A stretch of 64,000 bases of DNA from Mobula hypostoma. Taxonomy: Eukaryota. Positions 48,068 to 49,048 of the stretch are shown here, piece after piece. The position numbers and the translations under genes were made by a program. Below the pieces are notes generated by a model. That model searched no databases and was not told where the DNA came from. It saw only the letters and a program-made list of their open reading frames with translations. The stretch's first letter is position 1; every line of letters begins with the position of its first letter. The stretch is from positions 14,756,001 to 14,820,000 of the forward strand of contig NC_086108.1 of the NCBI RefSeq assembly GCF_963921235.1, in the 5' to 3' direction.

Positions 48068-48308
48068 GTACAGTCGTCACGGGCAACTACTGGGAGCAGT
48101 GGTTCTCTACAACCCCCCCCCCCCACACCACCTCCTATCTCAGGGGAGCAGACAGCAGCTAACAACCTGAGCCTCTCTGCGGGAGTTACTAGCTCCTAGT
48201 GTGCCTGTTTTATCGATGCTTTTATCTTGGGTCGGCGCTTTTACTGGTTAAAAAGCCCATGTACTTGTAATAATTGGGAATTTTGTTTTGTAGTATTTTT
48301 GGTGAAGG

Positions 48309-48386
48309 ATGCGGATCTCTCGATGTGTCCTGTTTCTGGTAAAAAAAATCGGTAATAGCAAGCCGACGATATGGCGGAATCAACAT
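48309..48386 (+). CDS. GLUL: Alternative GLUL exon (whole exon 48294-48386) encoding mitochondrial presequence [26 protein letters not shown], continuing TYK-MATS in the next exon
   Basis: ttttgttttgtag acceptor, CAT|gtaggt donor, phase 0 into ACC TAC AAG ATG at 48874; basic peptide with no acidic residues; closely resembles the recalled spiny dogfish GS presequence ending [11 protein letters not shown]. Confidence 0.88.
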
Positions 48387-48873
48387 GTAGGTTGATGTTC
48401 AGTCCAATTAGACGTTAGGGATCTTGTGAAAATCGGTCGCTTGGTGGCGGGGTGGTGGGGAGGTGTGCATGATTTGCATGGCAGGGTGTGATCCAGGAAT
48501 TTAATTTGCGGGTTTGATCAAGAGTGCGGCCAGAAAAATGATTGCGGGATTGATCAGGGTGAAGCCAGAAATTAGCCGCGTCCGGGCTGGGCTGCAGTGC
48601 TTCAGTGTAGATGGGACGGGGTGGGCTGCATGCTTCGGTTGCTGGGGTGCATGTACGGTGCTGGTCGCCCTAGCCGGTGCCGTGCAGGACTGCGGAGTGG
48701 ACCAGACCAGACCAGACTTGCACAGCGGAGCCGGGAGCCGGCAGCCCGCCCCCTCCCCCCAGTTTCTTTGTTGGCCGGCCGGCGTGCGCGGTGCGCCCTG
48801 CCGCCCCCACCTCCACCCCCTCCCCCCCCTCCCCCCGACAGAGGCTAACCAGTGTGCCTTCTTTCCCCTGCAG

Positions 48874-49048
48874 ACCTACAAGATGGCCACTTCAGCCAGC
48901 GCCGGCCTCAACAAGGTGGTCAAGAAGAACTACATGGAGCTGCCACAGGACGGCAAAGTGCAGGCCATGTACATCTGGATCGACGGCACAGGAGAGGCGG
49001 TGCGCTGCAAGACGAGAACCCTGGATCGGGAGCCCAAGACCGTCAGTG
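48874..49048 (+). CDS. GLUL: GLUL exon with the cytosolic-form start ATG at 48883 ([55 protein letters not shown])
   Basis: cctgcag acceptor, G|gtaggt donor; 166 nt from the ATG; YIWIDG..RCKTRTL GSII motif. Confidence 0.97.

Follow-up and report, generated by a model that had tools for sequence, protein, structure and literature searches.

In ureosmotic cartilaginous fishes, urea synthesis is entered at CPS III, which receives glutamine from mitochondrial glutamine synthetase (GS). Matthews, Gould and Vardimon reportedly described in 2005 how the location of the enzyme is switched in the spiny dogfish, Squalus acanthias, by a cassette exon of the GS gene, with a pattern of liver versus neural tissue. 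According to the dogfish transcriptome study PMC5568229, TargetP predicts a mitochondrial signal in some GS1 isoforms of dogfish and elephant shark and none in others, and dogfish also has a signal-less GS2. Here, we analysed a window from Mobula hypostoma, by which we mean the whole 64-kb stretch of DNA, and found that it very probably holds an elasmobranch GS1 gene with a localisation switch of the dogfish type, in which inclusion of an optional exon would yield a 402-aa mitochondrial precursor and skipping a 373-aa cytosolic enzyme. For the comparison, dogfish sequences and isoform tables were taken from the supplements of PMC5568229 (S6 Table, S5 File and S3 File), with the liver cDNA sought in the first 4 million characters of S3 File; the tables cover four RNA-seq experiments, one per tissue, and the dogfish identity figures given below are hand counts by eye.

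The GS1 gene and its optional exon

The protein matches identify the gene in the window as a complete elasmobranch GS1 (glul) gene on the plus strand. The first common coding exon (48874 to 49048) finds its best named match in a Chiloscyllium protein annotated as 'glutamine synthetase, mitochondrial isoform X2' (85%). Over the N-terminal 201 residues, 183 (91%) are identical to Chiloscyllium GS1, against 139-148 (69-74%) for three GS2-like proteins of cartilaginous fishes, and we therefore assign the gene to GS1 and not to GS2. The remaining coding exons follow in frame on the same strand at 50149 to 50310, 51500 to 51646, 53293 to 53420, 56682 to 56881 and, with the stop codon, 57843 to 58161. 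The exon at 50149 to 50310 encodes the beta-grasp domain and, scanned alone, matches Pfam Gln-synt_N with 43.1 bits (cut-off 33.4). The last exon, also scanned alone, scored 18.6 bits for Gln-synt_C against a cut-off of 24; 98 of its 103 residues are identical to Chiloscyllium GS1, a protein that carries the Gln-synt_C domain. Candidate polyadenylation signals lie 3' of the stop codon at 58423 and 59886. Elsewhere in the window, RVT_1 retroelement fragments occur at 12981 to 13493 (minus strand), 15355 to 16260 (minus), 28898 to 29817 (plus) and 31542 to 32003 (minus); 5 of the 28 long frames scanned match RVT_1, and none matches another gene family above the cut-off.

The optional exon spans 48294 to 48386 on the plus strand, with acceptor TAG immediately before 48294 and donor CAT/GTAGGT after 48386. 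Its 93 nt comprise a 15-nt leader followed, from the ATG at 48309, by 78 coding nucleotides, or 26 codons, ending in phase 0. These are joined at the acceptor CAG before 48874 to codons for T-Y-K and then to the ordinary Met at 48883, the cytosolic start. Together with the six coding exons 3' of it, the optional exon forms a single stop-free frame of 402 codons, or 373 without the extension, and the introns of the gene are all GT-AG. A TGA lies in frame at 48303, 6 nt before the ATG, so that ATG 48309 marks the true N-terminus. On re-reading of the sequence, the exon boundaries, start codon and phase given in a first-pass annotation of this DNA proved exact, and the 402-aa form proposed there is backed by an intact frame with canonical splice sites.

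The same annotation had remarked that the exon is missing from open reading frame lists. It is also absent from our own six-frame list (at least 80 aa), which shows instead a 216-codon frame, 48505 to 49155, running from the intron into the first common exon. The 3' part of this intron, 48505 to 48873, is GC-rich and, in the frame of the common exon, has no stop codon and an ATG at 48538; it forms a trap for ab initio gene callers. We rejected ATG 48538 as a real start, given that the 115 codons it opens hold six acidic residues and that the dogfish transcripts have no such start. The practical value of recognising the optional exon is thus a correct gene model, as an ab initio reading would start at ATG 48538 or lose the presequence. 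To this extent the earlier warning that the gene is easily mis-annotated stands; however, the Swiss-Prot entry GLNA_SQUAC is the dogfish long form (403 aa) and the Chiloscyllium RefSeq protein is named as a mitochondrial isoform X2, so that existing annotation is aware of more than one isoform.

Several features of the exon bear on how it might be used. Its acceptor is the weakest of six tested, with 52% pyrimidine versus 67-76% at five constitutive acceptors, as expected for a regulated exon. The context of ATG 48309 is only adequate (A at -3, C at +4), and that of ATG 48883 is strong. Two out-of-frame ATGs lie within the exon, at 48323 and 48371, the latter in a strong context and opening a frame of 63 codons that runs across the cytosolic start at 48883. 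The overall pattern is uncommon but not unique: when GT[AG] sites on both strands of the window were filtered for an upstream frame that starts with ATG, runs for 20 codons or more with no stop or acidic residue and has six or more Lys or Arg, 4 of 1856 plus-strand sites passed, one of them being the optional exon, and 0 of 1926 minus-strand sites. A chance origin is nevertheless excluded, because the exon is homologous to that of dogfish.

The 29-aa extension is basic, acid-free and amphipathic and so has a presequence-like character. It contains four Lys and three Arg and neither Asp nor Glu (net +7), in line with the composition first described for it; its hydrophobic moment peaks at 0.69 over residues 2-12, and R2, R5, K12 and K13 share a face of an ideal helix. 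The presequence found no match in Pfam and none among 199 other compared proteins (best local score 29), the dogfish sequence being the sole second presequence in that comparison. Among the matches listed in the protein searches (best 120 of 122 and best 120 of 2457), no long elasmobranch form appeared as a representative; the Chiloscyllium GS1 sequence cluster comprises 793 sequences, likely including other long forms. A metagenome scan yielded 14 loci at 58-76% identity, none of them close enough to carry the exon.

Orthology with the dogfish cassette exon

By its position, sequence and flanks, the optional exon is orthologous to the dogfish cassette exon; the mechanism is, as the first-pass annotation had supposed, one already known. 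The alignment to Squalus GS that it had put forward as a check gave 82 of 93 identical nucleotides between the optional exon and the dogfish liver cDNA (the next, constitutive exon has 142 of 174), with a homologous end to exon 1. At the protein level, 20 of the 26 exon-coded residues are identical (binomial 1e-18 at 7% background), as are 23 of the 29 residues of the whole extension. In both species the exon belongs to the same gene, lies between exon 1 and the first common exon, and contributes 26 codons followed by T-Y-K in phase 0, and the TATA box and exon-1 end are the same. The six changed positions of the extension (4, 6, 7, 14, 17 and 18) bring in no acidic residue or stop; all six basic positions of dogfish are kept, and one Lys is gained in Mobula. 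Synonymous differences amount to 3 of 18 in the optional exon versus 17 of 47 in the next exon, which is not significant (Fisher p = 0.15, from hand counts), and extra RNA-level constraint on the optional exon was accordingly rejected.

The two exons also differ in detail. The dogfish exon is 95 nt long rather than 93, Mobula having 2 nt fewer at the 5' end, and the codon 6 nt before the ATG is an in-frame stop in Mobula and a Trp codon in dogfish. Of the two species, only Mobula has the out-of-frame ATGs at 48323 and 48371, neither of which occurs in the dogfish sequence of the supplements, and we therefore rejected a block to leaky scanning by these ATGs as a general mechanism.

Exon 1, which had been left unplaced, can now be located, and it and its donor are homologous to dogfish. 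We place this exon, non-coding for GS, at about 48005 to 48067 on the plus strand, with donor AAG/GTACAG after 48067 and a 226-nt intron 1, on the basis of three stretches shared with dogfish: the TATA motif, a motif surrounding ATG 48015, and the final 7 nt ahead of the GT at 48068, of which 6 agree with the end of dogfish exon 1 (by eye). The TATA box lies at 47976 to 47982, where a 9-nt motif at 47975 is identical in the dogfish leader, and was used to set the start of the exon. Further upstream, a conserved non-coding block at 47640 to 47745, probably a promoter or enhancer element, has five short motifs in the same order as in the dogfish leader (47644, 47683, 47699, 47727 and 47737, by eye); the last includes TGCAAT, which we take to resemble a C/EBP site.

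Within exon 1, a 16-codon uORF (48015 to 48065) stops just before the donor. Its ATG is kept in dogfish, where the skipped transcript runs from it in frame with GS and a 23-aa extension is predicted (the ovary protein). In Mobula, this ATG is probably mostly bypassed, since its context is weak and it lies about 10 nt from the inferred cap. The 3' part of intron 1 (48195 to 48293), which ends in the weak acceptor, is similar to the dogfish contig that retains this intron: the last 60-100 nt resemble the brain contig when both are read as peptide (by eye). We regard this conserved segment as a second candidate control element.

Dogfish isoforms and readings of the Mobula exon

In dogfish the exon is optional, and both isoforms are made. 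In the tables of PMC5568229, the kidney has isoforms of 3036 and 2941 nt that share a common leader and lie 95 nt apart, at 90.42% for the long form and 9.58% for the skipped form. The liver table contains one isoform, the long form, and the ovary table one isoform, the skipped form. In the brain table, a spliced inclusion contig takes 90.58%, a second inclusion contig that keeps intron 1 and is 257 nt longer takes 5.31%, and a skipped contig takes 4.12%. Spliced inclusion mRNA is thus made in dogfish brain. The proportions in this tissue are probably unreliable, because reads from the shared body would go to the shorter contig: the leader of the top contig has 41 nt before the ATG, and that of the skipped contig has about 870 nt and extends beyond the TATA box. 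The figure of 90.58% appears confounded, and at face value it contradicts skipping in brain rather than confirming it. Of the rule that liver includes the exon and neural tissue skips it, on which the first-pass annotation had relied, the liver half agrees with the dogfish liver table, which lists the long form only, whereas the confounded brain table provides no confirmation of skipping.

For Mobula, we infer both isoforms, their tissue pattern and import from dogfish and established knowledge. Transcription would start about 30 nt 3' of the TATA box at 47976. On inclusion, exon 1 would be spliced to the optional exon and this to 48874, the first in-frame ATG would be that at 48309, and the product would be a precursor of 402 aa, the first 29 of them forming a basic, amphipathic presequence. 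This precursor would be imported into mitochondria, and glutamine made there would feed CPS III for urea synthesis. On skipping, exon 1 would be joined directly to 48874, translation would begin at 48883, and the 373-aa enzyme would stay in the cytosol.

We weighed three other readings of the exon, the first of which we consider improbable. It holds that the exon is real and mitochondrial-targeting but effectively constitutive in Mobula, the cytosolic enzyme coming from leaky scanning to 48883 or from GS2. The start contexts, only adequate at 48309 and strong at 48883, would suit it, as would the abundant inclusion in dogfish brain at face value and the presence in dogfish of a GS2 without a signal (PMC5568229). 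The dogfish tables, however, list genuinely skipped transcripts for kidney, brain and ovary, and the acceptor of the Mobula exon is weaker than all the others tested. Leaky scanning faces the further difficulty that the out-of-frame ATG at 48371, with its 63-codon frame over the cytosolic start, would divert leaky ribosomes in Mobula.

Still less probable is a reading in which the segment serves as an alternative first exon or belongs to a retained intron 1, with its own start site inside 48068 to 48293. Intron 1 is short (226 nt) and its 3' part conserved, and one dogfish brain contig does keep the intron. Against this, the dogfish liver cDNA joins exon 1 straight to the exon at the homologous acceptor, the two dogfish kidney isoforms differ by exactly the length of the exon, and the only TATA-like conserved motif located lies 5' of exon 1. 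Finally, there is scarcely any chance that the segment is a decayed or chance pseudo-exon no longer used in the Mobula lineage: the compositional pattern does recur at 3 other of the 3782 GT[AG] sites and 6 of 26 residues differ from dogfish, but neither the frame and ATG nor the two splice sites show any damage, the exon is no less similar to dogfish at the nucleotide level than the next, constitutive exon by the hand counts above, and no substitution gains an acid or a stop. A dogfish-type switch is therefore the reading we retain.

Candidate splicing control and comparison with known systems

The intron that follows the optional exon is 487 nt long and contains four TGCATG (RBFOX) motifs on the plus strand, at 48466, 48475, 48627 and 48648 (together 48466 to 48653), which correspond to +80, +89, +241 and +262 from the donor. 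The six other introns of the gene contain 0, 1, 0, 0, 2 and 0 copies, with none in intron 1. Four copies were reached in 2 of 10000 Markov resamples of the intron, and the group is the only cluster of at least three TGCATG within 300 nt in the window, among 24 plus-strand and 23 minus-strand sites (47 in total). TGCATG belonged to a set of seven motif classes fixed in advance of the count; it ranks second of the 403 hexamers in the intron, which gives p of about 0.1 when corrected for all 403. A GU-rich patch that matches ESRP1 SELEX hexamers lies at 48442 to 48490, 56-104 nt after the donor. Scored with twelve ESRP1 SELEX hexamers from PMC6140460, the 50-nt window from 48442 is covered at 28 of 50 nt (56%), versus 0-7 of 50 (0-14%) after five other donors, and is the second highest of 225 tiles. 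The best 50-nt window was reached by 11 of 2000 composition-matched resamples; total coverage over 250 nt was not above the composition-matched control (327 of 2000 resamples). The highest tile of all (33 of 50 nt) falls in a GU/GT-rich stretch at about 43200-43250, 4.8 kb upstream of the gene, and is probably unrelated.

This layout, with UGCAUG and GU-rich hexamers 3' of the exon, resembles that of cassette exons enhanced by RBFOX2 and ESRP1. Exon activation is associated with Rbfox2 binding and motifs in the roughly 200 nt downstream (PMC3967051), and GU-rich motifs occur 3' of ESRP1-enhanced exons, ESRP proteins being epithelial (PMC6140460). The same study finds UGCAUG enriched 3' of ESRP1-repressed exons (PMC6140460), and cooperation between RBFOX and ESRP is for this reason not assured. 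The published maps come from mouse and human cells (PMC3967051, PMC6140460), and the Mobula motifs are candidate binding sites.

We tentatively propose, as a possibility that we rate somewhat below even, that the weak acceptor makes skipping the default and that RBFOX/ESRP-type proteins on the downstream cluster (48442 to 48653) switch inclusion on. If so, RBFOX and/or ESRP would decide, cell type by cell type, whether GS enters mitochondria, and urea-based osmoregulation would be tied to an epithelial/muscle splicing programme. Hepatocytes use ESRP2, neurons and muscle are RBFOX-rich, and brain GS is glial. Inclusion would then be expected in liver, kidney, muscle and GS-expressing neurons, and skipping in glia and ovary; an RBFOX enhancer alone would not explain skipping in brain unless the GS-expressing glia were low in RBFOX activity. 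The motif cluster makes control of the exon a directly testable point.

Comparative data on this intron come from two sources. In a shark-like protein (P0003), the 390 nt before the common exon allow no TGCATG, over a stretch that stops short of the donor side; the same frame-based test on the matching Mobula frame recovers its two TGCATG sites. The corresponding dogfish intron is apparently 702 nt or longer, judging from the supplementary sequences. Our literature search, which ran mostly outside subscription journals, found no paper that names a regulator of the exon or describes the exon in rays, and PMC10011836, PMC5192433 and PMC3688715 contributed no more than background and references.

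Among other vertebrates, the elephant shark, Callorhinchus milii, is like Mobula in having one GS1 gene with alternative N-termini (PMC5568229). The elephant shark long form, V9KKJ7, can be aligned with that of dogfish starting at residue 1 (84.9%), and a Callorhinchus protein in our comparison (P0013) lacks the presequence. Avian GS is similar in that one gene serves mitochondrial and cytosolic pools, a dual location found in uricotelic vertebrates (PMC5779702), but differs in that a weak signal lies in the N-terminal domain of the protein itself and not in an optional presequence exon (PMC5779702, citing Matthews et al. 2010). Two RefSeq X1 forms of bird GS, P0111 from Pyrgilauda and P0119 from Gallus, have N-terminal extensions that end in an Arg-rich, acid-free stretch of 40-53 residues; by eye, these resemble each other and not the elasmobranch presequence. 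If the extensions are real, birds may have an optional presequence of their own besides the published weak signal.

The exon is intact in Mobula and two isoforms are reported in a chimaera (PMC5568229), which together indicate that the switch is old and has been kept across cartilaginous fishes, a persistence that is confirmation rather than surprise. The Mobula exon is the known dogfish mechanism in one more species; what is new is the downstream motif cluster, as a lead to its control.
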